From Alphaproteobacteria bacterium (GTDB lineage Bacteria > Pseudomonadota > Alphaproteobacteria > JAEULC01), in NCBI GenBank assembly GCA_020846275.1, contig JADLEG010000250.1, positions 9,875 to 73,874 of the forward strand: 64,000 nt of DNA, given 5' to 3'. The notes below the pieces were generated by a model. That model saw nothing but the letters and a program-made list of their open reading frames with translations. It ran no database searches and was not told where the DNA came from. A program made the translations under genes and the position numbers. The stretch's first letter is position 1. Every line of letters starts with the position of its first letter. Below, piece by piece: positions 730-36,868 of this stretch.

Positions 730-1905
730 TCAGTCGCGCATGTCGCCGCTGATGAAATGTCCCAGCGGGGCCAGCGTCTCCACCCGGTCGCAGATCAGCT
801 TGAACGAGGCCAGCATGGGAACCGCGAGAAACGCGCCCATGACGCCCCACATCCAGTACCAGAAGACGATCGAAATGATCACGAGGACGGGATTGAGGGT
901 GAAGCGCTTCGCCAGCAGCATCGGCGTGACGCTGTCAGCCTCGATCAGGTGGATCGCGAGGTAAATCCCGGCCGGGATCAAGGCGGTCATCGCCGAGTCG
1001 AACGTCAGCAGGCCGGCCAGGAAAAGGATCGCCGAGCAGCACAGCGGGCCGATGATCGGGACAAAGTTGAAGACGAACGCAACCGTGCCCCACAGAAGCG
1101 GGTCGGCAAGGCCGCAAAAATACGCCGCGATGCCGGTAAGCGTGCCGACCAGCAGGTTCATCAGGCTGATCGTCACCAGGTATTGCGAGAGGTTGCGCTC
1201 GATCTCGCGGGAGATCTCCACGACCTGCTTCTTGTTGCTGTAGGTAGGGACGATCTCGATCAGTTTCCGCAGAAAAAGGTTGCCCGATACCAGCAGGAAG
1301 AACAGCAGCAGCATGGTGGTGAACCATCCCACCACCAGGCTCCGCGTGCCCGTGAACAGCATGCTGCCCAGGCCCTCGCCCTTCACGGTCACGGGGATCA
1401 CCGGCGTTGCGGCATTGTCCGTCAGCTTGTCGACGTTCTGGGTCACGCGCGCCAGTTGCTGCATGGGCGCCTTCAGCAGGTCGGCCCAATTCTCCAGTTT
1501 CGCCATCGCCTTTGGGGCCTGCGCGAACCATCCCGTGGCGGGTCCCGACAGTGGAATCATGACCGCCGCGACAAGCCCGCACAGCAACAGCACCAGCAGC
1601 AACGCATTCAACACTCGGGGCGTGGGCATCCGGTCGAGCAGGCGCATCGCCGGCTGCAGCAAGGTGCTGAGAATGAACGCGAGAACGATCGGGATGGCAA
1701 GTTCGCGAAGGAAATAGAGCGCCGTCAGGCACAGAATGACGAAGATGCCGGCGAGCAGTACGACCGGGAGGCTTTGCGGCAGGGCGAAATCGCCTTCTTC
1801 CTCACCGGCCTTCGCGAGCGTGAGCAGACGCGGCGCGGGCGGGGCCGCTTTGCCATCCGGCGCCTCGTCGGGGATTTCTTCAGCGAGCTCGATTTGGCCT
1901 GTCAC
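730..1905 (-). CDS. AI-2E family (PerM/YhhT-like) transporter
   Basis: Multi-TM protein; PIVLAFILSTLLQP, FFLL..G..F, FNFVPIIGP, PVLVIISIVFWYWMWGVMGAFLAVP. Confidence 0.88.
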   Translation of the reverse strand: MTGQIELAEEIPDEAPDGKAAPPAPRLLTLAKAGEEEGDFALPQSLPVVLLAGIFVILCLTALYFLRELAIPIVLAFILSTLLQPAMRLLDRMPTPRVLNALLLVLLLCGLVAAVMIPLSGPATGWFAQAPKAMAKLENWADLLKAPMQQLARVTQNVDKLTDNAATPVIPVTVKGEGLGSMLFTGTRSLVVGWFTTMLLLFFLLVSGNLFLRKLIEIVPTYSNKKQVVEISREIERNLSQYLVTISLMNLLVGTLTGIAAYFCGLADPLLWGTVAFVFNFVPIIGPLCCSAILFLAGLLTFDSAMTALIPAGIYLAIHLIEADSVTPMLLAKRFTLNPVLVIISIVFWYWMWGVMGAFLAVPMLASFKLICDRVETLAPLGHFISGDMRD

Positions 1906-1947
1906 GGTTCATCCCTGCATGCCCCGCTCGCGACCGAGGGCAAAGGC

Positions 1948-1974
1948 GGCGCCAGCCCCAAAAGGGCTGGCGCC
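1948..1974 (-). terminator. GC hairpin downstream of the 3977-1991 operon
   Basis: GGCGCCAGCCC-caaaa-GGGCTGGCGCC perfect 11-bp stem; only a short U tract on minus. Confidence 0.5.
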
Positions 1975-1990
1975 ATCGCTTGTGTGCCGC

Positions 1991-2248
1991 TTAGAACGAG
2001 AAGCCGAACGAGAAAGTCGGCGGATACACCGGCGGAGAGTAGATCACCGGCGGCGGCGAGTAGTACTGGGGATAGGAGGGGCCGATATAAACGTGCGGAT
2101 GGGCGCGGCGCCAATCATCCCGGTCCCAGTGCCGATGACGCCAGTGGTTGTCGTCCGCCCTGGCAGGGGTCGCCGGGACGCTCGCGAGCGGAAGCGCGAC
2201 GGCCGCGGCCATCACCGCCAAGGCGCCCGCGCGAATGATGTTCTTCAT
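1991..2248 (-). CDS. Small secreted His/Trp/Pro/Tyr-rich protein (85 aa)
   Basis: AGGAG RBS, signal peptide ending ARA, then HWRHRHWDRDDWRRAHPH and YSPPPVIYSPPVYPP. Confidence 0.7.
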   Translation of the reverse strand: MKNIIRAGALAVMAAAVALPLASVPATPARADDNHWRHRHWDRDDWRRAHPHVYIGPSYPQYYSPPPVIYSPPVYPPTFSFGFSF

Positions 2249-2276
2249 CTTGCAGCTCCTTTGTCCGTGCGAGGGG

Positions 2277-2831
2277 TCAGTTCGTGGCCTTGGGGATGCC
2301 GGTCCCGGGGGGGCGCTCGGCACCGCTGGCGGCGGCGGCCTGGTTGTAGCGGTGGAAGACCTCGTCGGCGGCCCGGCGCTGATCGGCCGACATGCTTTCA
2401 TAAAGCGGCGTGAAGGCATCGATCATGTTCTTCAATGCGTCGGAATGCGCCTCCGACATCTGCTGGTAGGACTTCAGGTCCTCGATCGCCGACATCTTGG
2501 CCCACGCATCGCGGCGCTTTTCCATCGCGGCTTCCATGCTCTTGCCGTTTTCGCGCATCGCGGCCGCGACGCCCTTCCATTTCGATTCCTGCTCCGGACG
2601 GATGCCCAGCCGCTGGTGCAGGTCCTGGACGCGGGCTTCGATCCGCTCTTCGGTCGTATAGCTGCGCGCGGCGACGTTGGCGGGCGGCACGGCCTGCTGC
2701 GCGGTGGGCGCGACGCGCTGGGGGGCGGCCGGCGCTGCCGGCGGGGTGGACTGGGCTGCGGCAAGCCCGGTCATGCTGGCGAAGGTCAACGCGGACACCA
2801 GGCCCGCGCGCGCAAGGGAGAAGGTTGCCAT
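2277..2831 (-). CDS. Spy/CpxP (LTXXQ motif) periplasmic chaperone-like protein
   Basis: Signal peptide; LGIRPEQESKW and LYESMSADQRRAAD match the two LTxxQ-like repeats; helical. Confidence 0.75.
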   Translation of the reverse strand: MATFSLARAGLVSALTFASMTGLAAAQSTPPAAPAAPQRVAPTAQQAVPPANVAARSYTTEERIEARVQDLHQRLGIRPEQESKWKGVAAAMRENGKSMEAAMEKRRDAWAKMSAIEDLKSYQQMSEAHSDALKNMIDAFTPLYESMSADQRRAADEVFHRYNQAAAASGAERPPGTGIPKATN

Positions 2832-2912
2832 GAGTTGCTTCCTCTTCTGATACCGTCCCCCGGTTTGCCGGAACGGCCCCGGGCAAACCGCCCGAGGCCG
2901 TTCCCAGCAGTC

Positions 2913-3626
2913 TTAGGAATCGCGGTTCAGGCGCATTGCGGTCGACTTCGTGCCGGCGCTGCCGGTGCCTTCGAAGCCGTCTTGCGTGAACCGCCCGGAG
3001 ATGGCCAGCGGGTCGCCGCCGTCACCCGAGGACTTGTTCTTGTCCTTCAGGAACCCTTTGCCGGAGAAATAACCCGCCGAGTCGACGATACCGTCCAAGG
3101 TCACCCGGTCGGTCGTATCCTCGTAGTGGATGTGCAACTGCCCGCCCACCACGGTTGCCTGCACCGCAAAGCTCTGGCCGCGGGGCTCGATACGTCCGGA
3201 CCAGAGGCCGTCGAAGGGCATGGCCGCCACCGGCTGCACGGACGGCGGCGGCAGGATCGGCTGGTAGGGAACGATGACGGTCGCCACGGCCGTACGACCG
3301 TTGATCTGGCGCAGCGCCTCGTCTCGCCCCGCACGCGCGGCGCCGATATCCGGCTGCAGCGCCAGGGCGTCATTATAGGCGTCGAACGCGCTTCCCGGCC
3401 GCCGCGAGGCCAGCAGCGCATCGCCCAGGCGCGTCATCAGCTCGGGATCGTTGGGCTGGTAGCGGCTCGCCGCCAGACAGGCATCGAGCTGCTGCGGCCC
3501 CGGCGTGCGGCACCGGCTCGCAAAATCGGGGTACTGGGCGTTGGCGAACGGCGCGAGGCCGGCAACCATCGGAATTGCCAACATGGTGGCGGTGGACAAA
3601 TACCGGACAAGGCGTGATGCAGCCAT
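2913..3626 (-). CDS. Secreted TPR-containing hypothetical protein
   Basis: GAAGGAG RBS; signal peptide; TPR-like LGDALLASRRPGSAFDAYNDALALQPD followed by a beta-rich C-terminal domain. Confidence 0.65.
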   Translation of the reverse strand: MAASRLVRYLSTATMLAIPMVAGLAPFANAQYPDFASRCRTPGPQQLDACLAASRYQPNDPELMTRLGDALLASRRPGSAFDAYNDALALQPDIGAARAGRDEALRQINGRTAVATVIVPYQPILPPPSVQPVAAMPFDGLWSGRIEPRGQSFAVQATVVGGQLHIHYEDTTDRVTLDGIVDSAGYFSGKGFLKDKNKSSGDGGDPLAISGRFTQDGFEGTGSAGTKSTAMRLNRDS

Positions 3627-3665
3627 GCGGGCTCTCCTTCAAGTCTCGTTTGAGGCGCGATCGAG

Positions 3666-3977
3666 CTAGTTCGTCTCGCGCATGACTTCGCCGCCGGGCG
3701 ACACGGCGACATTGATGTCGCCGCCGCCGGCGCTCGCCGTGGCGTGCCAGACGTTGTCGCAGCCCTTGCGAAGATCGCGCACGTTGGTCAGGCCGGCGGC
3801 CTCGATCCGACGACGCGCATCAGCCGCCGTCGAACCGTCGATCCGCTCGCCGAACTCGCAGTTGTTGCTGACCTGCGACCATTTGCTGTCAAGCTTGGGC
3901 GCCGTCTGGGCAGTGGCACCGGCAGCGAAGCCGGCGGACGCCAATATCGCGACCGCCGCAATGATATTGCGCATCAT
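3666..3977 (-). CDS. Small secreted PepSY-like protein with Cys pair
   Basis: Signal peptide; ARRRIEAAGLTNVRDLRKGCDNVWHATA; paralog of 23076-23477. Confidence 0.7.
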   Translation of the reverse strand: MMRNIIAAVAILASAGFAAGATAQTAPKLDSKWSQVSNNCEFGERIDGSTAADARRRIEAAGLTNVRDLRKGCDNVWHATASAGGGDINVAVSPGGEVMRETN

Positions 3978-4050
3978 TGGAACACCTCATTCGCTAGGAA
4001 ACGAACCGTCCCATCGCACGGAAAGCGCCGCTGCGATGCGTTGGTAGCCA

Positions 4051-4075
4051 AACGCGTCCCTGTGGGGATGGTTCC
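4051..4075 (-). promoter_or_regulatory. EcfG-type promoter GGAAC-N16-CGTT
   Basis: Exact consensus upstream of the 3977-1991 operon. Confidence 0.8.
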
Positions 4076-4107
4076 GGGAAGTGAGCGCGGCTTTGCGCGC
4101 CGTCAGA

Positions 4108-5802
4108 CTAGTCGACGCCCCCGGTCGGGATCGGAAATACGACCTTTAGACAAAAATCGGCGGGACGCCTGGCGAGTTCCAGTTTGCCGCCAAGCTGCTG
4201 AACGAACCCCCGGACAAGGGTCTGGCTCAAGCCGTCCGAATCGGACAGCAAGGGTCGCGTCTCGCTGCGTATCAAAAGCTCTCCGCGGCCTTCGGGATGC
4301 AGCAGCAGTTCGATCCGCAGACTGCATCCATGCGCCGCGGCCGGTTCCGGATTCAAGCAATTGATGACGATCTCCGCGATCATCAACCCCAGCGGCCCAG
4401 CTTGGTCCGTGGACAGCTCCATCGGCGGCGCGATGATATCGATGCTGACGAGGTCACGGTCCTCGTCGTCAGCCATCCCGGCGAGTTGCGTCACCAGTTC
4501 GTTCAGGAACGATTGGATCTCGATCGCCCGCACCTCCTGGCGCCGATACATGTGCTGGTGCAGCAGCATCAGCGCGACGATGCGCTCCCGCGCGACATGG
4601 ATCGCCGAACGGGCCACGGGGTGGCGGATGCGATGCGCCTGAAGGCTGAGCATCGACGAGACGATCTGTAGGTTGTTCTTGACGCGATGATGGATCTCGT
4701 GGACGAGCTGGTCGCGCTGGGTCAGAAGCTCCTTCAGCTTCACTTCGCGGTCGGTCACCGTTTCCGTCACCTCGACAAAGCGCCTGGCCAGCCGGCGCAG
4801 TTCGGCCGGCATCGCCGGCAGACCGGGCGGGGGTGTGAACGGCACCTCTGACCCGCCATAGGAGCGGAACGCGTTTCCCAGCATCCGCAAAGGCTTCAGA
4901 ACGGAATAGTGGGCGCCAAAGGTGACGACCAGGACGCTGAGCCCCAGCAGCAGCACGATCTGCGTCAGGCGGAAGGCGAAGTCGGCATCGGCATGGCTGA
5001 TCGTGGGGCTGGCCGGCAAGGCGGCCATGAGCAGAAGGGAATCCGTCAATGGACGCACGGCATAGAAGACCTGTTCGCCGCTCTGGGTCCCGCTCTCGAA
5101 CACGGAATCGGTTCTCGCTGTCGACAGGCCACCGGCGACGGGCTGGGGCAGCAGCTCATCGCCGCCGACGATGTTCACGGCCCGGTCGCCGCCCCGCGGC
5201 AGGATCCACACGGCGCTACCTTCCGGCATGCGGCCATATCCGGGCATGCTGGCAAACGCCGCCACGGGCATCGTGGCGCCGACGGTGGCGACGATCCCAT
5301 CGTTGCCCGCAATGGGCAGCCCCGCCAACAAGGCGCCTCGGGATTCCGGGAATTCCACAGTGGTGAGCGCCACGGAGAAGCCGCCCGTGGTCTTGACCGA
5401 TTCGAAAAGCGCCGACGGGCTGAAGCCGCCGCCGCTGCGCCCGGTGCTGCACTTGAGATGGCCGATCTGGTCGAGCAGGAAGAAACCGCCGAAATACTTT
5501 CCGGTAGAGACGATCTTCTCGATCAGGCTGCGGTCGCAGGCAGGGGACGACGCCGAAGCGACTTGTGGGGCAAGCGCGGTCAGAAGTTGCTGCGTCGCCG
5601 CCAGGACTGTGGCCTGCTCGCGCAGCACGGCGTCGGCCAGCATGGCGACCACGCGGCGGCCTGCCGCCAAATCGGCTTCGCGCCGGTTGACCGCGTTCGA
5701 TATTGCAGCCACGACAACCGGAATCGTCACCAGTATCAGCAGGAGGACGAGACGGACCCTGACCGATAGGCGACCGACCCACCGCGGCTTCAAAGCACCC
5801 AC
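4108..5802 (-). CDS. Membrane sensor histidine kinase-like protein (HisKA_2) with degenerate ATP-binding domain
   Basis: Two TMs, periplasmic Cache-like and HAMP-like regions, H-box EIHHRVKNNLQ; G1 box replaced by IRSETRP. Confidence 0.85.
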   Translation of the reverse strand: MGALKPRWVGRLSVRVRLVLLLILVTIPVVVAAISNAVNRREADLAAGRRVVAMLADAVLREQATVLAATQQLLTALAPQVASASSPACDRSLIEKIVSTGKYFGGFFLLDQIGHLKCSTGRSGGGFSPSALFESVKTTGGFSVALTTVEFPESRGALLAGLPIAGNDGIVATVGATMPVAAFASMPGYGRMPEGSAVWILPRGGDRAVNIVGGDELLPQPVAGGLSTARTDSVFESGTQSGEQVFYAVRPLTDSLLLMAALPASPTISHADADFAFRLTQIVLLLGLSVLVVTFGAHYSVLKPLRMLGNAFRSYGGSEVPFTPPPGLPAMPAELRRLARRFVEVTETVTDREVKLKELLTQRDQLVHEIHHRVKNNLQIVSSMLSLQAHRIRHPVARSAIHVARERIVALMLLHQHMYRRQEVRAIEIQSFLNELVTQLAGMADDEDRDLVSIDIIAPPMELSTDQAGPLGLMIAEIVINCLNPEPAAAHGCSLRIELLLHPEGRGELLIRSETRPLLSDSDGLSQTLVRGFVQQLGGKLELARRPADFCLKVVFPIPTGGVD

Positions 5803-5907
5803 CGTGTTATCCCAGCCCGTACGAGGAAGCGCGGCAGGACGATTTTTCGCTGACCGATCCGCCTAGGACCGCCCCGCGCATGAGCGACGCCTGCGCATTC
5901 CAGCCGC

Positions 5908-6050
5908 CTAGTGTCCCGATTCCGAGGTTCGTCAGTGTTTGCGACGAAAAGGACACGAGCAACTATTTGAGTCTAGTGCCCCTTTGGAACCCGAAGTTCG
6001 CCTCCGGTCTTGCGATCAAGCGAAGGCGAACTTCGGGTTCGGGGCACTAG
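5908..6050. repeat. CTAG-bounded palindromic mosaic repeat, copy 1 (two-unit, 24-nt internal deletion)
   Basis: Near-identical to 33497-33664; CTAG at 5908, 5973 and 6047; arms GAACCCGAAGTTCGCC/GGCGAACTTCGGGTTC. Confidence 0.9.
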
Positions 6051-6274
6051 TTATCCTTGATCTTCTTGTCGTCGATCAACTGGAGGAGCTCGTCGGGAAC
6101 GGGCTCGTGCGCCACGTCCGAGAACATGTCGCGCAACTCCCGTTTCAGCCACAGATCGAACGCCGTCGACGTCTTGTCAGCACGCCTCGCCGGTTTCGGT
6201 GCCTGCCGCGCCTGCGCGCCGCCGGCAGCCTTCCTGGCGCTGTCGGCGGGTCGATCCGTGGGTCGTTTTGCCAT
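6047..6274 (-). CDS. nepR: NepR anti-sigma factor
   Basis: Low-complexity N-terminus then FDLWLKRELRDMFSDVAHEPVPDELLQLID; adjacent to ecfG/phyR. Confidence 0.88.
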   Translation of the reverse strand: MAKRPTDRPADSARKAAGGAQARQAPKPARRADKTSTAFDLWLKRELRDMFSDVAHEPVPDELLQLIDDKKIKDN

Positions 6275-6425
6275 GATGGTGTCAATCCGCAAAGACGCCA
6301 CGGTCGCGCACCCAGTGGCCCCAAACCCGCCGTCACGCGGAAGGAAGGCAGCCTGCATAATTCCCGACATGCCGTGCATTCCTCTAAGGCGGTAAGATAC
6401 CGCTCACCACCAACTATCGCAATCG

Positions 6426-6998
6426 CTAGAGCAGCGTCTGGGCTGCGGTGCCGGTGTCCGCCGGATCGCAGCTGACCCCACCCCGATCGGAACGACGTGC
6501 CTCTGGCGCCGGAACGTCGCTGGCCGAAACCCCGAGCAGATCCTCGTGCAACTGGCGCCGGGCGCGGCTGATGCGGCTCTTGACGGTCCCGGTGCGACAT
6601 CCCATGACGTCGGCGATTTGGTCGTGGTTGAGTTCCGACAAGGTCGACAACAACAGCGCCTCTCGCTGAGCGACCGGAAGCCGGTCGATCGCGCCCACCA
6701 GCTCACGCAGCACGAGGCGATCGTCATGGGATTCCGCCACCGCGATGCGCTTCGCCACCACGTCGTCCAATGGCACCGTGTCGCGCTTCTTGCGGATACC
6801 GGAGATGAATTCGTTGCGAAGGATCTTGTGCATCCACGCGGCGAAGTTCGTGCCGGGCTGGAAACTGGTCTGCGCCGCCAGCGCGCGCACGACCGTGTCC
6901 TGCACCAGATCTTCCATGCCGTGCCGGTTGCGTGTAAGTGCCAGGGCATGACGACGGAGTTGGGGGAGGATCGCCTTCAGGTCATCATGGAAGCTCAT
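6426..6998 (-). CDS. ecfG: ECF sigma factor, EcfG (ECF15) type, copy 1
   Basis: LPQLRRHALALTRN..EDLVQDT, GTNFAAWMHKILRN, GTVKSRISRAR; GSR locus context. Confidence 0.88.
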   Translation of the reverse strand: MSFHDDLKAILPQLRRHALALTRNRHGMEDLVQDTVVRALAAQTSFQPGTNFAAWMHKILRNEFISGIRKKRDTVPLDDVVAKRIAVAESHDDRLVLRELVGAIDRLPVAQREALLLSTLSELNHDQIADVMGCRTGTVKSRISRARRQLHEDLLGVSASDVPAPEARRSDRGGVSCDPADTGTAAQTLL

Positions 6999-7040
6999 TG
7001 TTTGGCTCCGTCCTGTTTTTCCCGATTTCTCTGATGAACC

Positions 7041-7065
7041 AACGAGCGCACCTGGCATTGGTTGC
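7041..7065 (-). promoter_or_regulatory. EcfG-type promoter GCAAC-N16-CGTT upstream of ecfG copy 1
   Basis: Read directly; -35 variant GCAAC. Confidence 0.7.
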
Positions 7066-7163
7066 CGGCGGTGAACATCGAAAAAAATTATGTCGGCCCA
7101 AAGGGTTATCGACGCCAGCGTCGAACGCCGCGGGTTCCTGCGGCCCGCATGCCCGCCTTCAAG

Positions 7164-7760
7164 TCAGGAAGAGGGCGTTCTGCCGGCCGCTTGCTCGTCC
7201 GAGCCCCCGCCGGCTTCCAGGTCCGCCTTCAGACGCGCGCGCGCCCGGCTGACCCGCGCCTTCATGGTGCCGATGGCGCAATTGCAGATTTTCGCGGCTT
7301 CCTCGTGCTTCAGGCCCCGCATCGTGACCAGGACCAATGCCTCGCGCAGCTCGGGCGGCAAGCGCCAGAACGCCGAGCGAAGATCGCGGACCGCGAGATG
7401 CCCCTCCTGGGGCGGGTCGATGCGCAGCACCTCGGCAGATCCGACAAGCGCGGGGTCGGCGGAAACCTCGCGGCGCTGGCGACGGCGTTGATCATAGAAG
7501 ACGTTGCGCAGGATGGTAAACGTCCATGCCCCCATGTTCGTGCCGGGCCGGAAGCTATGCAGGGCCGCCAGCGCCCGGGTCAGCGATTCCTGAACCAGAT
7601 CATCGGCGCGTTCCCCATCACGCTCGAGGGATCGGGCGAAGGCGCGTAGATCGGGCAGGAGCCCGACCAGGGATCGCCTGAGTTGCGCATAGGTCGCGTC
7701 GGCGCTCAACGGTCGGATCCCATCTGATAAGATGTGTGGCCCGCGAATGAGAAAGCTCAA
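7164..7760 (-). CDS. ecfG: ECF sigma factor, EcfG (ECF15) type, copy 2 (start uncertain)
   Basis: LPDLRAFARSL..ADDLVQE, GTNMGAWTFTILRN, GTMKARVSRAR; divergent from phyR. Confidence 0.88.
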   Translation of the reverse strand: MSFLIRGPHILSDGIRPLSADATYAQLRRSLVGLLPDLRAFARSLERDGERADDLVQESLTRALAALHSFRPGTNMGAWTFTILRNVFYDQRRRQRREVSADPALVGSAEVLRIDPPQEGHLAVRDLRSAFWRLPPELREALVLVTMRGLKHEEAAKICNCAIGTMKARVSRARARLKADLEAGGGSDEQAAGRTPSS

Positions 7761-7862
7761 GATTGCATGAAAGGTTCAAGGGGAGTACGTTTTTCCCAAG
7801 GACGCATTGCATTTCTTGCGCGAGCCGAGCGTGTTGGCGCCGGCATGCGAAGGACAAACCCC

Positions 7863-8609
7863 ATGACGCGGCCCTCAGCCAAGACGATAATCGCGAAGCA
7901 TATTCCTTATCTTCGACGATACGCGCGCGCCCTCGCCGGCACGCAGGCCGCGGGCGATTCCCTGGTAGCCGAGGCGCTGCGGTCGTTCGGGTCGGCGCCT
8001 GAGAACGAAGACGAATTGCGGGTCGCCCTGTTCCGGGCGGTGACGCAGTCCGCGAACGCCATGTTCGTTTCCAAGCCGCCGTCGACCGACGCGCTGTCGC
8101 TGGCCGAGCGCCAGATTCTGCTGCTGACCTCGTTGGAAAGCTTCCCGGTCGACGCCGCGGCAGAGGTTCTGGGCGTGCCGGGCAGCGAGGCGGTGCAACT
8201 GTTGGCGGATGCGAAGGAGCGGCTGCGCGTCAATGCGCAGACCGATGTGCTGATCATCGAGGACGAACCGGTCATCGCACTTGATATCGCGGAGCTGGTT
8301 GCATCCTGCGGCCACCGCGTCGTCGGCGTTGCCGCGGCGGAGCGCGAAGCGATCGCCCTGGCGCGCGACAAGCGGCCCGGTCTCATCCTGGCGGACATCA
8401 ATCTTGCCAATGGCGGCGACGGCCAGAGCGCCGTGGCCGAAATCCAGAAGCAAGGCGCCGTGCCGGTGATCTTCATCACCGCCTATCCAGAACGGCTGCT
8501 GACCGGGGCGTTGAACGAACCGACGTTCCTGATCACCAAGCCGTTCGATCCGCTGCGCCTGGCCATCACGACCTACCAGGCCGTGAGCGGCGGCCTGCCC
8601 TTCAAGTAG
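7863..8609 (+). CDS. phyR: PhyR anti-anti-sigma response regulator, copy 1
   Basis: Sigma-like N-terminus IPYLRRYARALAG; REC with IIEDEP, LADINL, FITAYPERLLTG, TKPF. Confidence 0.93.
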   Translation: MTRPSAKTIIAKHIPYLRRYARALAGTQAAGDSLVAEALRSFGSAPENEDELRVALFRAVTQSANAMFVSKPPSTDALSLAERQILLLTSLESFPVDAAAEVLGVPGSEAVQLLADAKERLRVNAQTDVLIIEDEPVIALDIAELVASCGHRVVGVAAAEREAIALARDKRPGLILADINLANGGDGQSAVAEIQKQGAVPVIFITAYPERLLTGALNEPTFLITKPFDPLRLAITTYQAVSGGLPFK

Positions 8610-8672
8610 CGCGGGCGCCGCCCCCAGACGCCTGGCCTGCCGCGACTTGTCTGTGGCCGGATGCGGGTCAAG

Positions 8673-8697
8673 GGAACTTTCTTCGCCGCAATGCGTT
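8673..8697 (+). promoter_or_regulatory. EcfG-type promoter GGAAC-N16-CGTT
   Basis: Exact consensus upstream of DUF1328 and the MlaC-like gene. Confidence 0.8.
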
Positions 8698-8771
8698 GAT
8701 CCGGTGGCGCTTCCGCGGCTCGTGTCCCCGTCTCCAAGGGTGGGCCCGGCCTGAGGCGCCCGGAGACACAC

Positions 8772-8936
8772 ATGCTGACATGGGCCTTGATCTTCCTGGT
8801 TGTCGCGATGGTGGCCGGAGCCTTCGGTTTTTGGGGCCTCGCCTCCACGGCGGCAGGATTTGCAAAGGTTCTTTTCGTCGTCTTCCTGGTGCTCTTCCTG
8901 GGATCGCTGGTCGTCAGCATGACCGGCCACGCCTGA
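8772..8936 (+). CDS. DUF1328 (UPF0391/YtjA-like) small membrane protein, 54 aa; absent from ORF track
   Basis: Translated by hand: [47 protein letters not shown]; GGAG RBS. Confidence 0.9.
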
Positions 8937-8982
8937 GGTACCAGACGCACCCGACTCCCCTTGTCCTGAAGGAGCATCCGCA

Positions 8983-9579: not shown

Positions 9580-9589
9580 CGGACGGCGA

Positions 9590-9772
9590 TCAGGCGCCCT
9601 CGCGCCCGGTGTCCTTGGGACGGCCCATCTCCCGCCGCCCCTCCGCATCGTCGCTTTCCCTGCGAGAAAGCCCGCGGGGCCGTGCTGGCCGCCGCGGGCT
9701 GGGTTTGTCTTCGGGCTTGTGTGGCGATGGCGACCCCTTCGTCGCCGTGACTTGGTGCCGCCTGCTCGACAT
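9590..9772 (-). CDS. Small basic low-complexity hypothetical protein
   Basis: Co-oriented just downstream of csbD, GAAGAGG upstream; no family recognised. Confidence 0.35.
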   Translation of the reverse strand: MSSRRHQVTATKGSPSPHKPEDKPSPRRPARPRGLSRRESDDAEGRREMGRPKDTGREGA

Positions 9773-28244: not shown

Positions 28245-28252
28245 GACCAGTC

Positions 28253-29305: not shown

Positions 29306-29334
29306 GTGTGGCCCCTCCTCCGGGGCGGAGAACA

Positions 29335-29360
29335 AACGCTTGCGTTAACCCTTTGGTTCC
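29335..29360 (-). promoter_or_regulatory. EcfG-type promoter GGAAC-N17-CGTT
   Basis: Exact consensus upstream of GT4. Confidence 0.78.
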
Positions 29361-29378: not shown

Positions 29379-29870
29379 CTAGCGATCGTCGCGTTGGCAG
29401 ATCTCGGCGAGCGCTCGAGAGGCTGCGTAATCGGCGCCGCGCGCGACGGCAATGTCGCTCAGTGACACAAGTCCGATCAGCCGCTGCGCACGATTGAGGA
29501 CGGGCAGACGCCTGACCTTCGAGGCCGACATCCGGCAGGCCGCGTCGGTCACGGTTTCGTCCTCGTAGCAGGTGGCGACGCCTGTGGACATCATCTCGCG
29601 GACGTAGCCCTCGTCGGGATCGATGCCCCGGCTGACGGCACGCACCACGATGTCGCGATCCGTGATGATGCCGACAAGCCGCCCGTTCTCGACGACGGGC
29701 AGCGTGCCGCAGCCGTGGGCTTGCATCGCCTTGGCCGCTTCGCGCAGCGAATCCTCCGGCGCCGCGCATTTCACGCCAGGCGTCATGATCGCGCGGACGA
29801 GCAAGCCAGGGTCGTCACGGCTGGCGTGGGCTGCCGCGTGGCGGTCGACAGCCGATGCCGACACTTGCAT
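29379..29870 (-). CDS. CBS domain pair protein
   Basis: IMTPGV..LPVVENGRLVGIITDRDIV; VRRLPV..LIGLVSLSDI; TGATG overlap with upstream gene. Confidence 0.9.
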   Translation of the reverse strand: MQVSASAVDRHAAAHASRDDPGLLVRAIMTPGVKCAAPEDSLREAAKAMQAHGCGTLPVVENGRLVGIITDRDIVVRAVSRGIDPDEGYVREMMSTGVATCYEDETVTDAACRMSASKVRRLPVLNRAQRLIGLVSLSDIAVARGADYAASRALAEICQRDDR

Positions 29871-30253
29871 CACCTGGAAGCGTAGGTGAACGCGGGGAAG
29901 GTCTTCATCCGCTCCTTGGTCGCGCCAGGCAGCACGCCAATATTGTCCCGCCACGCAATGGATTCATACGGTATGGCTACCAACCGGTCGCCGACCCCCA
30001 GGAACCCGCCCACCGACACGATCGCCACGACCACGCGGTCATCCGCGCGGATCACCAGGTCGTCGATCTTGCCGACGGATTCGTTGGCTTCGTTGACGAG
30101 GGATGCGCCGACGATCTTCGAGGCCCGATAGCCCTTCATGACGGTCGCTGGCTCGATGACGGTGACCCGCGTGACGGCGGCGGTCTGAGCAGCCAGCGGA
30201 TTGGCCTGGACCAGCAAAAATGCAAGGGCGGCCGCGCCCGTGTGCTTCAACAT
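29870..30253 (-). CDS. Secreted PRC-barrel domain protein
   Basis: RASKIVGASLVNEANESVGKIDDLVI..AIVSVGGFLGVGDRLVAIP. Confidence 0.92.
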   Translation of the reverse strand: MLKHTGAAALAFLLVQANPLAAQTAAVTRVTVIEPATVMKGYRASKIVGASLVNEANESVGKIDDLVIRADDRVVVAIVSVGGFLGVGDRLVAIPYESIAWRDNIGVLPGATKERMKTFPAFTYASR

Positions 30254-30290
30254 GCTTCCTCTCCATTTCTCAAGCTGGGACGGGATCATC

Positions 30291-30315
30291 AACGCATGCC
30301 GCAAAGGCGCGTTCC
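30291..30315 (-). promoter_or_regulatory. EcfG-type promoter GGAAC-N16-CGTT
   Basis: Exact consensus upstream of PRC-CBS. Confidence 0.82.
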
Positions 30316-30426: not shown

Positions 30427-30900
30427 ATGAAGAACCTTCTTTTGGCAGCAGCGGCGCTGGTCGCCCTCTCGGCTCCGGCATTCGCCGCTTCGGATTCCGC
30501 CTGCAGGGCGGAATGGGACAAGGCGGACGTCAATCGCGACGGCGTTCTGAGCGGCGCGGAAGCCGACCCCTACTTGGCGCGCATCGCGTCGCCCCCGCAG
30601 GACGGGCGGATCACATCCGCCATGTTCATGGCGGATTGCAAGGCGGACCGCTTCACCACCGCGGGCACGAGCGGCGCGGCGACCGGCACCTACACGGCGA
30701 AGACCGATCCAGGCGCGCCGCTGGCCGGTGCAAACAGCTTCACCGAAGCGCAGGCCCGCGACCGCATCGTCAATGCGGGCTATTCGGACGTGTCGGGGCT
30801 TCGCAAGGACGAGCAGGGCATCTGGCGGGGCACCGCGAAGAAGAACGGGGCGCAGGCGAGCGTGGCCGTCGACTATCGCGGCAATGTCGTCGCCCAGTAG
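30427..30900 (+). CDS. Secreted EF-hand + PepSY-like protein
   Basis: Signal peptide; EF-hand DVNRDGVLSGAE; GANSFTEAQARDRIVNAGYSDVSGLRKDEQGIWRG. Confidence 0.8.
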   Translation: MKNLLLAAAALVALSAPAFAASDSACRAEWDKADVNRDGVLSGAEADPYLARIASPPQDGRITSAMFMADCKADRFTTAGTSGAATGTYTAKTDPGAPLAGANSFTEAQARDRIVNAGYSDVSGLRKDEQGIWRGTAKKNGAQASVAVDYRGNVVAQ

Positions 30901-30932
30901 CAATCACGAACACCGTTCAAGAGGATACGATC

Positions 30933-31550
30933 ATGACAACCATCTCGAAGGTCTATGACAGCTGGGACCAGGCCCAGAGCGCGGTTCGCGCCCTGCAGGC
31001 CAACGGTACGCCGGCCTCGGAGATCAGCGTCGTCGCCAACAAGTACATCGACGACCGCTACGCGACCGACCGCGACATTCGGGCTGTTGCGCCCGACGAA
31101 CCGTCGGCCACCGGCATCGGCACGGGTGCCGGCGCCGCCGTGGGCGGCGGGGTCGGCCTGCTGACCGGCATGGGGCTGATGGCCATTCCCGGCCTGGGCC
31201 CGGTCGTGGCGGCCGGCTGGCTCGCGGCGACGGCGGCGGGTGCTGCGGCGGGTGCCGCGACGGGCGGCATCGTGGGCGCGCTGGTCGATTCCGGCGAGGA
31301 CGACACCACCGCCAATGTCTACGCCGAAACCGTGCGGCGCGGCGGCACGATGGTAACCGTGCGCACGGACGAGACGCGGCGCCCGGACGTCGAAAAGGTG
31401 CTCAATCGCTACCAGCCCATCGACCACAAGAGCCGGGCTGCCGAGTACGGGGCGAGCGGCTGGCGGGCCTTCGACGAGAAGGCCGGTCCCTACCACCCGA
31501 ACGCGAGCGAGGTGGAGCGCATCCGCCGCAAATGGACCGACGCGGCGTAG
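30933..31550 (+). CDS. General stress protein (YflT-like domain, Gly-zipper)
   Basis: YDSWDQAQSAVRAL..EISVV; GAAVGGGVGLL..IPGLGPVVAAG; GAEGYA-like YAETVRRGGTMVTV. Confidence 0.8.
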   Translation: MTTISKVYDSWDQAQSAVRALQANGTPASEISVVANKYIDDRYATDRDIRAVAPDEPSATGIGTGAGAAVGGGVGLLTGMGLMAIPGLGPVVAAGWLAATAAGAAAGAATGGIVGALVDSGEDDTTANVYAETVRRGGTMVTVRTDETRRPDVEKVLNRYQPIDHKSRAAEYGASGWRAFDEKAGPYHPNASEVERIRRKWTDAA

Positions 31551-31647: not shown

Positions 31648-31672
31648 GCAACCTTGGCAACATCGTCCCGTT
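31648..31672 (+). promoter_or_regulatory. EcfG-type promoter GCAAC-N16-CGTT
   Basis: Upstream of the small basic protein. Confidence 0.7.
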
Positions 31673-31734
31673 GCGTGAAGAGGGCAGCGACACCCGTGCA
31701 AGACCCTGCGGCAAATTTTTCGAAGGAGATGAAG

Positions 31735-31941
31735 ATGGCCGAAAAGACCAAGCGTCGCTATTCGCCCAGCGTGGGCAATGACGTGAAAAAGGAGATGCAT
31801 CGCTACAAGCGCGGCACCGCGAAGAGCGGCCCGGGCGGCAAGGCCGGCGGGGTCAAGAACAAGAAGCAGGCAATCGCGATCGCGCTGTCGAAGGCGCGGA
31901 AGAAAGGGAAAAAAGTCCCGAGTCGGCGGAAGGCTGCCTGA
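31735..31941 (+). CDS. Small basic protein (DUF6496-like)
   Basis: AAGGAG RBS; VKKEMHRYKRGTAKSG..VKNKKQAIAIALSKARKKG. Confidence 0.82.
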   Translation: MAEKTKRRYSPSVGNDVKKEMHRYKRGTAKSGPGGKAGGVKNKKQAIAIALSKARKKGKKVPSRRKAA

Positions 31942-32132: not shown

Positions 32133-32157
32133 GGAACTTGCCGGAACAGAGTGCGTT
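32133..32157 (+). promoter_or_regulatory. EcfG-type promoter GGAAC-N16-CGTT
   Basis: Exact consensus upstream of NRAMP. Confidence 0.82.
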
Positions 32158-32195
32158 CGTTGCCTGCGTGCAGCGGCGGGGAAGTGGGGATCGGG

Positions 32196-33500
32196 ATGGA
32201 CGCGACGCCGAACATCGACGCGGCAGCCGATCAGCCGGCTGAACCAGACCAGCCGGACAAGCGCAGCTTCCTTGCCATGCTCGGCCCCGGGCTTGTCACC
32301 GGCGCCGCGGACGATGATCCCAGCGGCATTGCAACCTACAGCCAGGTCGGCGCCCAGTTCGGCTATGGCCTCTCCTGGACGTTGCTGTTCAGCTTTCCGC
32401 TGATGGCGGTGATCCAGTCCGTCAGCGCCCGGATCGGATGCGTGACGGGCTGCGGCATCGCCCAGAACCTGCGGCGCCACTACCCCGCTCCGCTGCTCTG
32501 GGTGGTAGTGTCGCTGCTGATCGTGGCCAACGTCGTCAATCTCGGCGCCGACCTTGGCGCCATGGGTGCGGCGCTCCACCTGCTCGTGGGCGGGCCGGAA
32601 CTCGCCTACACGATGCTTTTCGGACTGGCCTGCGCCCTGCTCGAGATCCTCGTCAGCTACAACCGGTATGCCGGCATCCTGAAATGGACGACGCTGTCGC
32701 TGTTCGCCTATGTGGCGGTCGCGTTCGCGGCGGGCGTTCCCTGGGGTACGGCCCTGTACCACACTTTCGTTCCGCAGATCGTCCTGGATGGGCAGCACGC
32801 CATGGCCATCGTCGCGATACTCGGTACGACCATCAGCCCCTACCTGTTCTTCTGGCAGGCGGGGCAGGAGGTAGAGGAACAGCGCAGGCGCCACGTGAAG
32901 CCGCTCTGCGTGGCACCACGCCAGGCGGGGGACGAGCTCGCCCGCATCCGCACCGACACCATTCTCGGCATGGGCGTGTCCAACCTGATCGCGCTGTTCA
33001 TCGTGTTCGCCGCCGCGGCGACGCTTAACGCCAAGGGCGTCACCGACATCCAGACCTCGGCCCAGGCCGCCGAAGCCCTTCGTCCGGTCGCGGGCGACGC
33101 GGCATTCTTCCTGTTCGCGGCGGGCATCGTCGGGACGGGGATGCTGGCGGTTCCGGTCCTGGCCGGCTCGGTGGCCTATGCCGTCAGCGAGATGTTCCGG
33201 TGGAAGGAGGGCTTGAACCGCCGGCCGCGCCAGGCCAAGGCCTTCTACGCGGTCATTGCGGCCACTACCCTCGCCGGCGTGGGGCTCAATTTCATGTCCG
33301 TCGACCCGATCAAGGCGCTCTACTGGAGCGCCGTTGTCAATGGGGTGCTGGCCGCACCGCTGATGGCGATCATGATGCTGATCGCGGTGAACCGACAGAT
33401 CATGGGGCGACTGACGCTCAGTCCCGCCATGATTATGGGCGGATGGATGGCAACGATCGCAATGGCGGCCGCCACGGTCGCGTTTGCGGTCGCGGACTAG
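32196..33500 (+). CDS. NRAMP family divalent metal cation transporter
   Basis: LGPGLVTGAADDDPSGIATYSQVGAQFGY, ILGTTISPYLFFWQ. Confidence 0.92.
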   Translation: MDATPNIDAAADQPAEPDQPDKRSFLAMLGPGLVTGAADDDPSGIATYSQVGAQFGYGLSWTLLFSFPLMAVIQSVSARIGCVTGCGIAQNLRRHYPAPLLWVVVSLLIVANVVNLGADLGAMGAALHLLVGGPELAYTMLFGLACALLEILVSYNRYAGILKWTTLSLFAYVAVAFAAGVPWGTALYHTFVPQIVLDGQHAMAIVAILGTTISPYLFFWQAGQEVEEQRRRHVKPLCVAPRQAGDELARIRTDTILGMGVSNLIALFIVFAAAATLNAKGVTDIQTSAQAAEALRPVAGDAAFFLFAAGIVGTGMLAVPVLAGSVAYAVSEMFRWKEGLNRRPRQAKAFYAVIAATTLAGVGLNFMSVDPIKALYWSAVVNGVLAAPLMAIMMLIAVNRQIMGRLTLSPAMIMGGWMATIAMAAATVAFAVAD

Positions 33501-33664
33501 TGTCCTGATTCCGAAGTTCGTCAGTGCTTGCGACGCACGCCGTACGAACTTCGGAATCGAAAAGGACACGAGCAACTATTTCAAGTCTAGTGCCCCTTTT
33601 GAACCCGAAGTTCGCCTCCGGTCTTGCGATCAAGAGAGGGCGAACTTCGGGTTCGGGGCACCAG
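33497..33664. repeat. CTAG-bounded palindromic mosaic repeat, copy 3 (complete two-unit form)
   Basis: Hairpin A (GATTCCGAAGTTCGT/ACGAACTTCGGAATC), linker, CTAG at 33587, hairpin B; right end CCAG. Confidence 0.9.
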
Positions 33665-33681: not shown

Positions 33682-33921
33682 CTAGTGGCTGGTTCGATCC
33701 ACGGCGCCGGTGGTCCCGCTTTCCCGCGCGCAATGGGCGCAGCAGAAGGTCTTGCCGCTGGCCTCGATCCCGTGGCCGACAATCCGACACTGGCAATGCG
33801 CGCAGCGCGGCGCCAGCGCATGGATGGCGCATTCGAAGCTGTCGAAGGTCTGCGACCGCCCATCCTGGGAAATCATGAAGGCCTTGTCGTAGTCGTTTCC
33901 GCAAACCACGCAGCGTGCCAT
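33682..33921 (-). CDS. Prokaryotic metallothionein-like Cys-rich protein
   Basis: CVVCGNDYDKAF..TFDSFECAIHALAPRCAHCQCRIVGHG..FCCAHCA; GGGAGG RBS. Confidence 0.88.
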   Translation of the reverse strand: MARCVVCGNDYDKAFMISQDGRSQTFDSFECAIHALAPRCAHCQCRIVGHGIEASGKTFCCAHCARESGTTGAVDRTSH

Positions 33922-33949
33922 GCCGGCCTCCCTTGTCGAAGGTCCGGAC

Positions 33950-33975
33950 GCAACGGGTCACGGGCAGCCAAGGTT
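33950..33975 (+). promoter_or_regulatory. Possible EcfG-type promoter GCAAC-N17-GGTT for peptide-ligD
   Basis: Variant; only candidate found upstream of ligD. Confidence 0.4.
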
Positions 33976-34003
33976 GCATCCAGCGGGCTACACGGGATCG
34001 TGC

Positions 34004-34028
34004 AACGCTTTGTCGCCTCCCCCGTTAC
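34004..34028 (-). promoter_or_regulatory. EcfG-type promoter variant GTAAC-N16-CGTT for the metallothionein-like gene
   Basis: One mismatch in -35. Confidence 0.55.
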
Positions 34029-34057
34029 AGGAGCGCGCCTCACAGGGGAGTCTTGTC

Positions 34058-34135
34058 ATGCGCTATGTTGCACTTTGGATTCTCGGCGTTCCGGTGACCG
34101 TGATCATCCTGCTGGCCTTGTTCCGCGTCGTATAG
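34058..34135 (+). CDS. 25-aa single-TM small protein MRYVALWILGVPVTVIILLALFRVV
   Basis: GGGGAG RBS, ATG-TAG, hydrophobic LW.LGVP pattern. Confidence 0.6.
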   Translation: MRYVALWILGVPVTVIILLALFRVV

Positions 34136-34183
34136 CGTGGTGGCCCCGATCGACGGGGCTGTCGCCATTGGAGTGGGTGCCGA

Positions 34184-36868
34184 TTGGCCTCGAGGAATCT
34201 CGCCCTTTATCAGGCTAAGCGCGATTTCACCCGGACGCCCGAGCCAAGCGGCCGCGCGAAGACGGTGCCATCGCACGTCCCGCGCTTCGTGGTCCAGAAG
34301 CATGCCGCCACCCGCCTCCACTACGATTTTCGGCTGGAACTGGATGGGGTTTTCAAGTCCTGGGCGGTGACCCGGGGACCCTCCCTCGACCCGCACGAAA
34401 AGCGCCTGGCCGTGGAGGTCGAAGATCATCCACTCGACTATGGCGATTTCGAAGGCACGATTCCCAAGGGCCAATATGGTGGCGGCACCGTGCAATTGTG
34501 GGATCGCGGCCACTGGACCCCCGTGGGCGACGACTCGGCAGACGCGATGCTCACGAAGGGAAACCTGAAGTTCGTGCTGCAGGGCGAACGTCTGCAGGGC
34601 GGTTTCGTGCTGGTGCGCATGAAAGGCGACAAGTTCGGCGGCAAGCGCACGAACTGGCTGCTGATCAAGCACGCCGACGAATACGCCAAGGAAGGCGATG
34701 GCGATGGAGTCCTGGCCGAGGACCATTCCGTCGCCTCGGGCCGGACGATGACGGAGATCGCGTCGGGCAAGGGCCGTCGTCCCCGCCCCTTCATGCTGAA
34801 AGCGTCGTTCGACGCGGACGCCGTGTGGAACTCGAAGGAGAGCGCCGGTGCCACGCCTGAACGCTCGCGCAAACCCGCCCCCCGCAAACGGTCCCGTGCC
34901 GGCGCGAAGGCAGCGCGCGGCAAGGCGGTCGCGTCGATGCCCGATTTAGTTGAACCTCAGCTCTGCCGGCTGGTCGACCGCCCGCCCTCCGGCGCCGGCT
35001 GGGTCCACGAGGTGAAGTTCGACGGGTATCGCATCCAGGCGCGCGTGCAGGACGCAACGGCCGTGCTGCGAACGCGCAACGGCCTGGACTGGAGCGACCG
35101 GTTCTCCCGCATCAAGACGGCGGCGGAAGCTCTTGCCGATTGCATCGTCGACGGGGAAGTCGTGGCACTCGATCACAACGGTGCGCCCGACTTCGCGGCG
35201 CTGCAGGCGGCATTGTCGAACGGCAAGACCGACGAGCTGATCTATTTCGCGTTCGACCTTCTCTATCGGGAGAAGCAGGACCTGCGCGGCCTGGCGCTGG
35301 AAGAGCGCAAGAGCCGGCTGCGCACGCTGCTCGCGGAATTGCCCCGGCAGAGCGGCCCGATCATCCGCTACGTCGAGCATTTCGAGAGCGCCGGCGACGC
35401 CGTGCTCCAATCGGCCTGCCGCATGTCGCTCGAGGGCATTGTTTCGAAGCAGGGCGATGCGCCCTATCGGTCGGGGCGCGGAAATGCGTGGACCAAGTCC
35501 AAGTGCCGCGCCGGCCATGAGGTGGTGATCGGCGGGTGGACCGAAACCAACGGCAGCTTCCGTTCGCTGCTGGCAGGCGTGCACCGCGACGGCCGCCTGA
35601 TCTATGTCGGCCGCGTCGGAACAGGCTTCGGACGGGCCGTCGCTTCGCGCGTGAGAGCGAAGCTGCGGCCCTTCGAGAGCGAGCAGAGCCCGTTCAGCGG
35701 GCTTAACGCCCCCAAGCGGGAGCGCGAGGTCCATTGGGTGGAACCGCGGCTGGTCGCGGAAATCGAATTCGCCGGCTGGTCCCGCGACGGCATGGTGCGC
35801 CAGGCCGCCTTCAAGGGGCTGCGCGAGGACAAGCCGGCCGCGGAGGTGGAGGCCGAAAAACCCGCCAAGGCAAAGACCGCGACGCTGGGCCGGCCCGGCC
35901 CGAAGCGCGCCGCGCCGGCCCCGAACGTGAAGCCGCGCAACGGCAGCGAGTCGGACAGCGTGGTGATGGGCGTGGCGATATCGAACCCTTCGAAGCCGAT
36001 CTGGCCCGACGCGAACGACGGAAAGCCGGTCACCAAGCTCGACCTTGCCCACTACTACGAGGCGGTCGGGCCCTGGATGATCGAGCACCTGCGCGGACGT
36101 CCCTGCTCGATCATCCGCGCGCCGAACGGCCTGGGCGGCGAGCGGTTCTTCCAGCGCCACGCCATGCGGGGCACGTCGAGCCTCATCGACCTCGTCACCG
36201 TGTCAGGCGATCGCAAACCCTATCTCCAGATCGACCGCGTCGAAGCGCTGGCGGCGGCTGCCCAGGTTGCGGCAGCGGAACTGCACCCGTGGAATTGCCA
36301 GCCCGATCAGCCAGACATGCCGGGACGCTTTGTCTTCGATCTGGACCCGGCGCCCGACGTTGCCTTCGACCGCGTTGTCGAAGCCGCCCTGGAGCTAAAG
36401 TCGCGGTTAGAGGCCTTGGGCCTGGTGCCGTTCTGCAAGACGACAGGCGGCAAGGGCCTGCACGTGGTGACGCCCCTGACCGTCGCGAAGAAGGACAGGA
36501 TCGGCTGGCCCGAGGCCAAGGCCATCGCCCGCGCGATCTGTGCCCAGATGGCCGAGGACAGCCCCCACAAATTCCTGGTCACGATGACGAAGAAGGAGCG
36601 CGTGGGGCGCATCTTCCTCGACTACCTGCGCAACGATCGCATGGCCACCGCCGTGGCGCCCTTGTCGCCGCGCCTGCGCGACGGCGCACCGGTCTCCATG
36701 CCGTTGACATGGCCCCAAGTCAAGAAGGGGCTTGACCCGATGCGATTTACGCTGCGCACCGTGCCCGGCCTGCTCGCGAAGGGCACCGCCTGGAAAGACT
36801 ACGTCGATTCTGAACGGCCGCTCCTCGTCGCCTTCAAGCGGCTATCCGCCCGGCAGAAAGCCGCCTGA
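34184..36868 (+). CDS. ligD: DNA ligase D (phosphoesterase-ligase-polymerase)
   Basis: [60 protein letters not shown]. Confidence 0.97.

Follow-up and report, generated by a model that had tools for sequence, protein, structure and literature searches.

Gene content and regulators of the block

The 64-kb window analysed here (contig JADLEG010000250.1 of assembly GCA_020846275.1, positions 9,875 to 73,874; all coordinates below are those of the window) belongs to an uncultured alphaproteobacterium of activated sludge or wastewater. Between positions 730 and 36868 it holds a block of genes for a predicted general stress response (GSR) of the PhyR-NepR-EcfG type, in which regulators, sensors and many promoters of the kind read by EcfG, an extracytoplasmic function (ECF) sigma factor, lie together. 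When open reading frames (ORFs) were called by codon-usage log-odds with greedy selection, 42 genes were found in this block, and besides the regulators the block encodes about 29 typical stress-gene families, for example Ku, LigD, CsbD, DUF1328, two MlaC-like proteins, PRC, CBS and Nramp. An initial annotation of the sequence had counted about 50 mostly stress-associated genes; the stress families are borne out by Pfam, and our gene count is lower. It had also described unrelated catabolic genes on both sides, which agrees with what we found: a partial enoyl-CoA hydratase gene (1-690) on the left, and on the right catabolic and transport genes encoding an NHL-repeat protein, Crp, TctCBA, FMN and 2-hydroxyacid dehydrogenases, an enolase-superfamily enzyme, short-chain dehydrogenases/reductases, an ABC transporter, a luciferase-like monooxygenase and AllG.

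The block encodes two PhyR anti-anti-sigma response regulators, PhyR1 (7863-8609, plus strand) and PhyR2 (19396-20232, minus strand), which both carry PF22029, PF22233 and PF00072 and score 271.4 and 250.7 bits, respectively, against NF006623 (cutoff 240). They share 37% identity, and the true start of PhyR2 probably lies about 45 nt inside the called start. An exact-protein look-up of PhyR2 returned short Logan contigs only. The anti-sigma factor NepR is present in a single copy (6047-6379, minus strand; PF18557, 29.2 bits against a cutoff of 25.7). Two ECF sigma genes with Pfam sigma regions 2 and 4, ecfG2 (6426-6998) and ecfG1 (7164-7709), stand in tandem on the minus strand, adjoining nepR on one side and the divergent phyR1 on the other. 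Their products are 41% identical to each other. Both sigma genes show 35-58% identity to the ecfG beside phyR in about 60 other loci, and EcfG1 shows 42-54% identity to the ecfG adjoining phyR in many of them. The assignment of both as putative EcfG (ECF15) proteins rests on this context and similarity rather than on an ECF15-specific profile.

Five genes encode kinases of the HWE/HisKA_2 type, four of which (starting at 4108, 10406, 15571 and 20912) have a HisKA_2 or HWE_HK domain in Pfam. The first product (4108-5802, minus strand) is a PhyK/PhyT-like protein with HisKA_2 only and no detectable HATPase_c, which the NCBIfam PhyK model matched end to end below its cutoff. The others are a dCache-HisKA_2 sensor kinase (10406-12088, plus strand), a PAS-GAF-PAS HisKA_2 kinase (15571-17892, plus strand) followed by a single-domain response regulator (17902-18399, plus strand), and a PAS-HWE kinase (20912-21898, minus strand) accompanied by another single-domain response regulator (20514-20885, minus strand). 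The fifth (14275-15159, minus strand) is a fragment with HATPase_c and a receiver domain and no HisKA. The two single-domain response regulators are of the SdrG/MrrA kind. PhyR, NepR, EcfG-type sigma factors, HWE/HisKA_2 kinases and target promoters, including ones that point to autoregulation, are thus all found at the block, and the claim that the regulatory cascade lies within it, alongside its promoter-bearing targets, holds.

EcfG-type promoters are concentrated in the block

We searched the window for the exact motif G[G/C]AAC-N16/17-CGTT, taking the expectation from dinucleotide-preserving shuffles of the window. Nineteen sites were found, 18 of them within 4051-34026. The GGAAC-N16/17-CGTT form occurs 11 times against 0.78 expected (the largest shuffle gave 4), and the GCAAC-N16/17-CGTT form 8 times against 1.00 expected. 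At least 18 sites would arise with a Poisson probability of about 7e-17 if 1.0 is expected from shuffles, and of about 2e-12 if the rate is set to an empirical 0.052 sites/kb. This background rate was taken from 1.27 Mb in 77 mostly alphaproteobacterial loci with no phyR detected, which were matches of a PhyR2 scan, most of them aligned to the receiver domain only. A scan allowing one mismatch was set aside as too noisy, since its 66 matches were spread evenly over the window.

All 18 block sites are intergenic, and each is oriented to a same-strand gene downstream. Since only 12.4% of the block is intergenic, the probability of such a placement for all 18 is about 5e-17. Seventeen sites lie about 0-160 nt 5' of a predicted ORF start, with the near-zero distances reflecting maximal ORF starts (the gene calls in a related genome begin 30-60 nt further in); the eighteenth (20293-20317) precedes a 59-aa ORF that was added after the initial ORF calling. 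The initial annotation had proposed at least 15 exact EcfG-type promoters, a number that our count exceeds. It had noticed none in the right-hand 27 kb, which is correct for promoter-like sites; one exact match does occur there (57480-57504), intragenic and antisense to its host gene, where about one is expected by chance. The right half of the window has 0.037 sites/kb. Taken together, the flanking sequences in the window and in the related genome contain one site in about 52 kb, compared to 0.5 sites/kb inside the block. The block is therefore bounded sharply at both ends by motif density.

Eleven block promoters have GGAAC at the -35 position and seven have GCAAC. The GCAAC set serves the ecfG2 operon, the PAS/GAF kinase, the second MlaC-like protein, the DUF308-GFO unit, the DUF6496 protein, a cysteine-rich protein and LigD. 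The base after GCAAC is C in six of the seven.

The block is kept in a second species

The best match of PhyR2 among GTDB representative genomes is 38% identical, which gave no close relative. A search of a large protein collection uncovered an 86%-identical homologue in the NCBI metagenome-assembled genome GCA_020851015.1 (contig JADZDN010000278.1), and 56.6 kb of this contig was compared with the window. The block is collinear in this relative from the enoyl-CoA hydratase and AI-2E transporter genes to LigD, with block proteins sharing 63-94% identity and the flanking hydratase 97%. The ortholog of the PhyK/PhyT-like protein likewise has HisKA_2 only, and the NepR ortholog is also annotated as NepR. 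Four-fold degenerate sites of the block genes are only about 50% identical, indicating that the two genomes are well diverged and that the block is old in the lineage.

In the relative, exact sites number 17, all inside the block, and one palindrome accounts for two that overlap; none occurs in 10.5 kb of its left flank or 14 kb of its right flank (24.5 kb in total). An exact counterpart stands at the orthologous place for 16 of the 18 window sites. One of the two unmatched sites lies in a segment found in the window only, and the other reads GAAAC-N16-CGTT in the relative. The synteny check suggested with the initial annotation thus shows block and left flank collinear and the sites largely kept. 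The -35 variant, GGAAC or GCAAC, is identical in 16/16 promoter pairs, while the paired spacers are about 43% identical and switch in length between 16 and 17. Boxes kept while spacers diverge are the pattern expected of functional promoter boxes.

Predicted transcription units

The units below have predicted boundaries, and their promoters are exact motifs kept in the relative unless stated otherwise. At the left end of the block, a promoter with GGAAC-N16-CGTT (4051-4075, minus strand) precedes five genes (3977 to 730, minus strand) for a 103-aa protein, a TPR-like protein of 228 aa, an LTXXQ (Spy/CpxP-like) protein, an 85-aa protein and an AI-2E family transporter; the order is kept in the relative, and an operon is inferred because the genes lie on the same strand with short gaps. 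The promoter of ecfG2-nepR-phyK-like (7041-7065, minus strand; GCAAC-N16-CGTT) is placed between the two ecfG genes. To the right of phyR1, a promoter at 8673-8697 (plus strand) serves the genes of a DUF1328 small membrane protein and the first MlaC-like protein (8772-9579), and the minus-strand gene of CsbD (9809-10068) has its promoter at 10044-10068. Three small genes, for proteins of 120 aa, 102 aa (DUF883-like) and 126 aa, follow on the minus strand (12173-13278; promoter 13254-13278). A transglutaminase-like gene (13321-14251, minus strand; promoter 14227-14251) is absent from the relative, as is the neighbouring kinase fragment. The promoter of the PAS-GAF-PAS kinase and its regulator (15494-15518, GCAAC; unit 15494-18399, plus strand) is the one with GAAAC in the relative.

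In the middle of the block, phyR2 and Ku form a minus-strand unit (18401-20255) with a promoter at 20231-20255; a near-consensus site, GGAAC-N16-CTTT, lies upstream of Ku (19335-19359) and belongs to the noisy one-mismatch class. Divergent from phyR2, the promoter at 20293-20317 (plus strand) precedes the hydrophilic 59-aa ORF (20351-20530; unit 20293-20530), which is unannotated, has a ribosome-binding site, is kept in the relative and was predicted as a gene on a Logan contig. We considered this ORF as a second NepR and rejected it, since its sequence, read by eye, is not NepR-like. A minus-strand unit of an 85-aa gene, the PAS-HWE kinase and its single-domain regulator (20514-22212), of which the kinase and the regulator are absent from the relative, has only the near-consensus GGAAC-N16-CCTT upstream (22255-22279). 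On the plus strand follow the second MlaC-like protein (22296-22992; promoter 22296-22320, GCAAC) and a 133-aa protein (23015-23477; promoter 23015-23039).

The remaining units reach to LigD. On the minus strand are DUF308 (HdeD-like), a GFO/IDH/MocA oxidoreductase and a 271-aa proline-rich protein (23486-26059; promoter 26035-26059, GCAAC); a GT4 glycosyltransferase and a GDE_N_bis/MGH1-like glycoside hydrolase (26076-29360; promoter 29335-29360); and a PRC-barrel and a CBS-pair protein (29379-30315; promoter 30291-30315). On the plus strand are genes for PepSY-like and YflT/glycine-zipper proteins (30427-31550), a DUF6496 protein (31648-31941; promoter 31648-31672, GCAAC) and an Nramp (MntH-like) transporter (32133-33500; promoter 32133-32157). 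A minus-strand gene (unit 33682-33977; promoter 33952-33977, GCAAC with N17) encodes a 79-aa cysteine-rich protein (33682-33921) that is 94% identical in the relative; this protein has 10 cysteines in CxxC-like pairs and no Pfam or NCBIfam match. Its promoter stands back to back with that of LigD (34002-34026, GCAAC; unit 34002-36868, plus strand), a phosphoesterase-ligase-primase/polymerase that forms the right end of the block.

A palindromic repeat resembling repetitive extragenic palindromic (REP) elements was also observed in three copies (5970-6050, 12113-12176 and 33584-33664), 72-95% identical to the reference copy and each directly 3' of a stop codon. Across four DNA metagenomes this repeat reaches depths of about 190-670, compared to about 6-16 for the neighbouring sequence, indicating that it is highly multicopy in the community. 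No match to Rfam families was found in the window.

Clustering of EcfG-type sites around phyR in other loci

The site density of the block was compared with other loci. Six phyR-bearing loci have 0.25 sites/kb, compared to the 0.052 sites/kb of the 77 loci without phyR. We further surveyed 80 true phyR loci from JGI metagenomes, in which 10 kb on either side of phyR were visible. These have 0.30 sites/kb overall with a peak at phyR: 0.4-0.6/kb within 2 kb, 0.25/kb at distances between 2 and about 6 kb, and about 0.06-0.1/kb beyond. The 18 surveyed loci of at least 15 kb contain 0-12 sites per roughly 20 kb, with a median of 4. The best 20 kb of the window holds 12 sites, equal to the top surveyed locus, L134 (12 per 20.7 kb); other dense phyR loci are L086 (5 sites in 8 kb) and L092 (7 in 8.6 kb), and further L130, L163 and L135. 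In the block, the density stays at about 0.6/kb over 30 kb.

Gene content was compared in the same survey. AI-2E, DUF1328, CsbD, PRC, Ku and LigD are recurrent phyR neighbours across loci, and each of the other surveyed loci has three or fewer of the 29 non-regulatory families of the block in the 10 kb on either side of phyR. A homologue of the AI-2E transporter (window 730-1905) was observed within a few kb of phyR/ecfG in a range of unrelated loci, namely L005, L060, L111, L129, L130, L134 and L135; this transporter may be a conserved, hitherto unstudied neighbour or target of the GSR. A tandem pair resembling ecfG1 and ecfG2 was also seen beside phyR across a broader clade (L096-L099, L101, L102 and L113), in which PhyR1 is 51-58% identical. 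Where the length of these loci allows a judgement, 0-1 exact sites lie within 10 kb, and the promoter consensus there may therefore differ.

In S. granuli TFA, by comparison, 104 EcfG-dependent genes in 79 operons run from locus tag SGRAN_0895 to SGRAN_4136 (PMC7083833) of a 4.68-Mb genome (bioRxiv 10.64898/2025.12.11.693706), and in S. melonis the EcfG motifs are dispersed over the whole genome (PMC6599016). This corresponds to about one unit per 59 kb in strain TFA and one per approximately 1.7 kb in the block. The initial annotation had contrasted the block with compact phyR loci and scattered targets. This view is right for these model regulons (PMC7083833, PMC6599016) but overstated in general, as local enrichment near phyR is normal in our survey. 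Because of this normal enrichment, the block counts as an extreme instance of a common arrangement: it stands at the top for site density and is unusual in extent and gene content.

Interpretation and alternative explanations

We consider it likely that the block is a chromosomal, vertically inherited GSR supercluster, made up of a PhyR-NepR-EcfG switch and at least 18 units with an EcfG-type promoter. This reading joins what was observed, namely genes and motifs, the way the motifs are placed and the fact that both are kept in a second species, to an EcfG dependence that is predicted. Following precedents for such signalling in S. melonis (PMC5898713) and Caulobacter (PMC5964349), stress-sensing kinases would phosphorylate PhyR, possibly via the single-domain regulators and the PhyK/PhyT-like protein; phosphorylated PhyR would then capture NepR and release EcfG; and RNA polymerase carrying EcfG would initiate at the G[G/C]AAC-N16/17-CGTT promoters. 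The predicted output would comprise DNA end-joining repair via Ku and LigD, envelope and lipid proteins (the two MlaC-like proteins, DUF1328, LTXXQ, PRC, PepSY, DUF883 and DUF308), the glycosyltransferase, hydrolase and oxidoreductase set, manganese import by Nramp, and the small protective proteins CsbD, YflT and DUF6496. Experiments in S. granuli TFA and/or S. melonis have shown EcfG dependence for Ku, LigD and a glycogen-debranching-type enzyme (PMC7083833, PMC6599016). Since ecfG2-nepR-phyK-like and phyR2-ku stand behind the motif, feedback would result, and ecfG1 and phyR1, having no motif, may be constitutive. A comparable hierarchy was reported in strain TFA, where one EcfG is constitutive and the other is autoregulated (PMC7083833).

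Several observations weigh against this reading. The exact motif was looked for and is missing upstream of ecfG1, phyR1, the dCache kinase, the PepSY-YflT genes, the unit of the 85-aa gene, HWE kinase and regulator, and the kinase fragment. Metatranscriptome contigs for the organism (four runs, over positions 1-20000) are short, have a depth of about 1-5, are evenly spread and are uninformative on start sites and induction. Conservation is judged from the one close relative found, which carries the block. That relative lacks two segments, one with the transglutaminase-like gene and the kinase fragment (13321-15174) and one with the PAS-HWE kinase and its regulator (20514-21898), indicating that the content of the block is not fixed and that its sensors turn over. 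Finally, the right flank differs: after LigD the relative has a TPP (thiamine pyrophosphate) enzyme, an aminotransferase, a GerE regulator and an ABC transporter, indicating that one of the two lineages underwent a rearrangement precisely at the LigD end.

The last two observations, together with the sharp boundaries of the block, could also be explained if the block were a horizontally transferable genomic island, moving as one piece without an integrase of its own, perhaps through recombination or through mobilization from elsewhere, and gaining and losing kinase-containing segments; the initial annotation had called the module possibly transferable. A further point in favour of such an island is that the left-flank hydratase gene is 77.5% identical to that of the relative at four-fold sites, compared to about 50% for the block genes. 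As a test for horizontal transfer, however, this contrast was set aside, as it depends on a single partial gene with an extreme GC content at third codon positions (0.95), where codon bias may explain it. Moreover, Pfam found no domain of an integrase or other recombinase, a transposase, a relaxase or a T4SS in the 42 block genes, no tRNA was found in the 64 kb, and no direct repeats pair the two block ends, so that the initial annotation was right in reporting no integrase, tRNA or transposase there. GC content is 0.64-0.67 inside the block and 0.62-0.68 outside, with no compositional shift, and a comparison of 20 kb of the block with 72,556 plasmids gave one 53-bp match only. The left junction is common to the window and the relative despite near-saturated synonymous divergence, which argues for long residence. 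At the right junction (36868/37032), contigs of four independent wastewater/sludge studies span the boundary, indicating that it is not an assembly artefact, and in those four metagenomes no contig joins LigD to anything but the right flank of the window. Taken together, these data make a mobile island quite improbable, and the suggestion of transferability is not sustained.

The supercluster reading could instead be refined by supposing that two older GSR modules fused, one made up of a PhyR1/EcfG core plus AI-2E, DUF1328 and CsbD and the other of PhyR2, Ku and LigD, with the GGAAC and GCAAC promoter classes read preferentially by the two EcfG paralogues. PhyR2-type proteins (49-62% identical) stand beside LigD in two other lineages, in one together with PepSY and YflT homologues and in the other with a CBS protein, and phyR-ecfG cores elsewhere are repeatedly accompanied by AI-2E, DUF1328 and CsbD. 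The invariance of the -35 variant in the 16 promoter pairs is consistent with two classes, as are the share of GCAAC (7/18 here, compared to about 13% near phyR elsewhere), the GCAAC promoter of ecfG2, and the promoter-dependent contributions of the two EcfG paralogues in S. granuli TFA (PMC7083833). The paralogues also differ in the sigma-4 helix (GTMKARVSRAR and GTVKSRISRAR), but an assignment of promoter classes to paralogues by this comparison was not adopted, since the differences are suggestive only. On the other hand, LigD has a GGAAC promoter in L086, so the class is not tied to the gene; the tandem ecfG pair in the seven metagenome loci is accompanied by 0-1 exact motifs of either class within 10 kb, where the length allows a judgement; and replacing G by C at one -35 position could do no more than tune promoter strength. 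We regard the combined proposal as unlikely; if true, it would mean a two-tier GSR in one locus, with ecfG2 autoregulating via its own GCAAC class. Many ECF groups share an AAC box at -35 and a CGT box at -10, so that the motifs might also serve another ECF sigma factor of similar consensus, or be non-functional conserved sequence, and the uninformative metatranscriptome leaves room for this. The consensus, however, is exactly that reported for EcfG (PMC7083833, PMC4814048). The only sigma genes of the block adjoin phyR and nepR, one of them having the motif in front of it; the promoters serve genes that are classic GSR targets; the boxes were kept as the spacers diverged; and the motif peaks at phyR across 80 independent loci. 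Such an explanation is therefore extremely improbable.

As a supercluster, the block reveals neither a new mechanism nor a mobile stress island, and is a large example of a known layout. It gives an unusually complete and compact view of the GSR in an uncultured bacterium, with regulators, sensors and about 40 target genes on a single 36-kb stretch that would lend itself to cloning and study as a whole. It is also a further case of EcfG targets gathering near phyR and shows how far such consolidation can go, and its stable promoter classes and tandem sigma pair pose a testable question about promoter partitioning between ECF paralogues.

Comparison with known systems

The switch parts of the block are the same as those of the PhyR-NepR-EcfG GSR studied in Sphingopyxis granuli TFA, Sphingomonas melonis Fr1 and Methylobacterium extorquens (PMC7083833, bioRxiv 10.1101/2021.10.15.464624, PMC6599016, PMC5898713, PMC4814048). 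As in those systems, there are a PhyT/PhyK-like protein without ATPase domain and single-domain response regulators, the consensus is GGAAC-N16/17-CGTT, and Ku, LigD, CsbD, a glycoside hydrolase and envelope proteins are among the targets. As in strain TFA, one sigma paralogue appears to be autoregulated and the other not, which in the block is judged by motif presence. Different from the studied systems, the gene order is ecfG1-ecfG2-nepR-kinase and not nepR-ecfG, and 7/18 promoters carry GCAAC at -35. Strain TFA has two EcfG, two NepR and two PhyR, whereas the block has two PhyR and two EcfG but a single NepR.

Stress-related cargo genes, proposed to aid resilience, likewise form a large block in an alphaproteobacterium in the case of ICE3 of S. 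granuli TFA (bioRxiv 10.64898/2025.12.11.693706), the sole published stress-response mobile element in the group that we found in the literature; that preprint mentions EcfG in its reference list only. Also similar to the block are the phyR loci L134, L130, L163, L135, L092 and L086 of other uncultured alphaproteobacteria, where the motif is likewise enriched around phyR and neighbour families are shared. In those loci, however, the aggregate density is about 0.1/kb beyond about 6 kb, whereas the block keeps its density over 30 kb. Where the EcfG regulon of strain TFA is spread genome-wide over its 79 operons, at least 18 units are gathered here in 30 kb beside the regulators.

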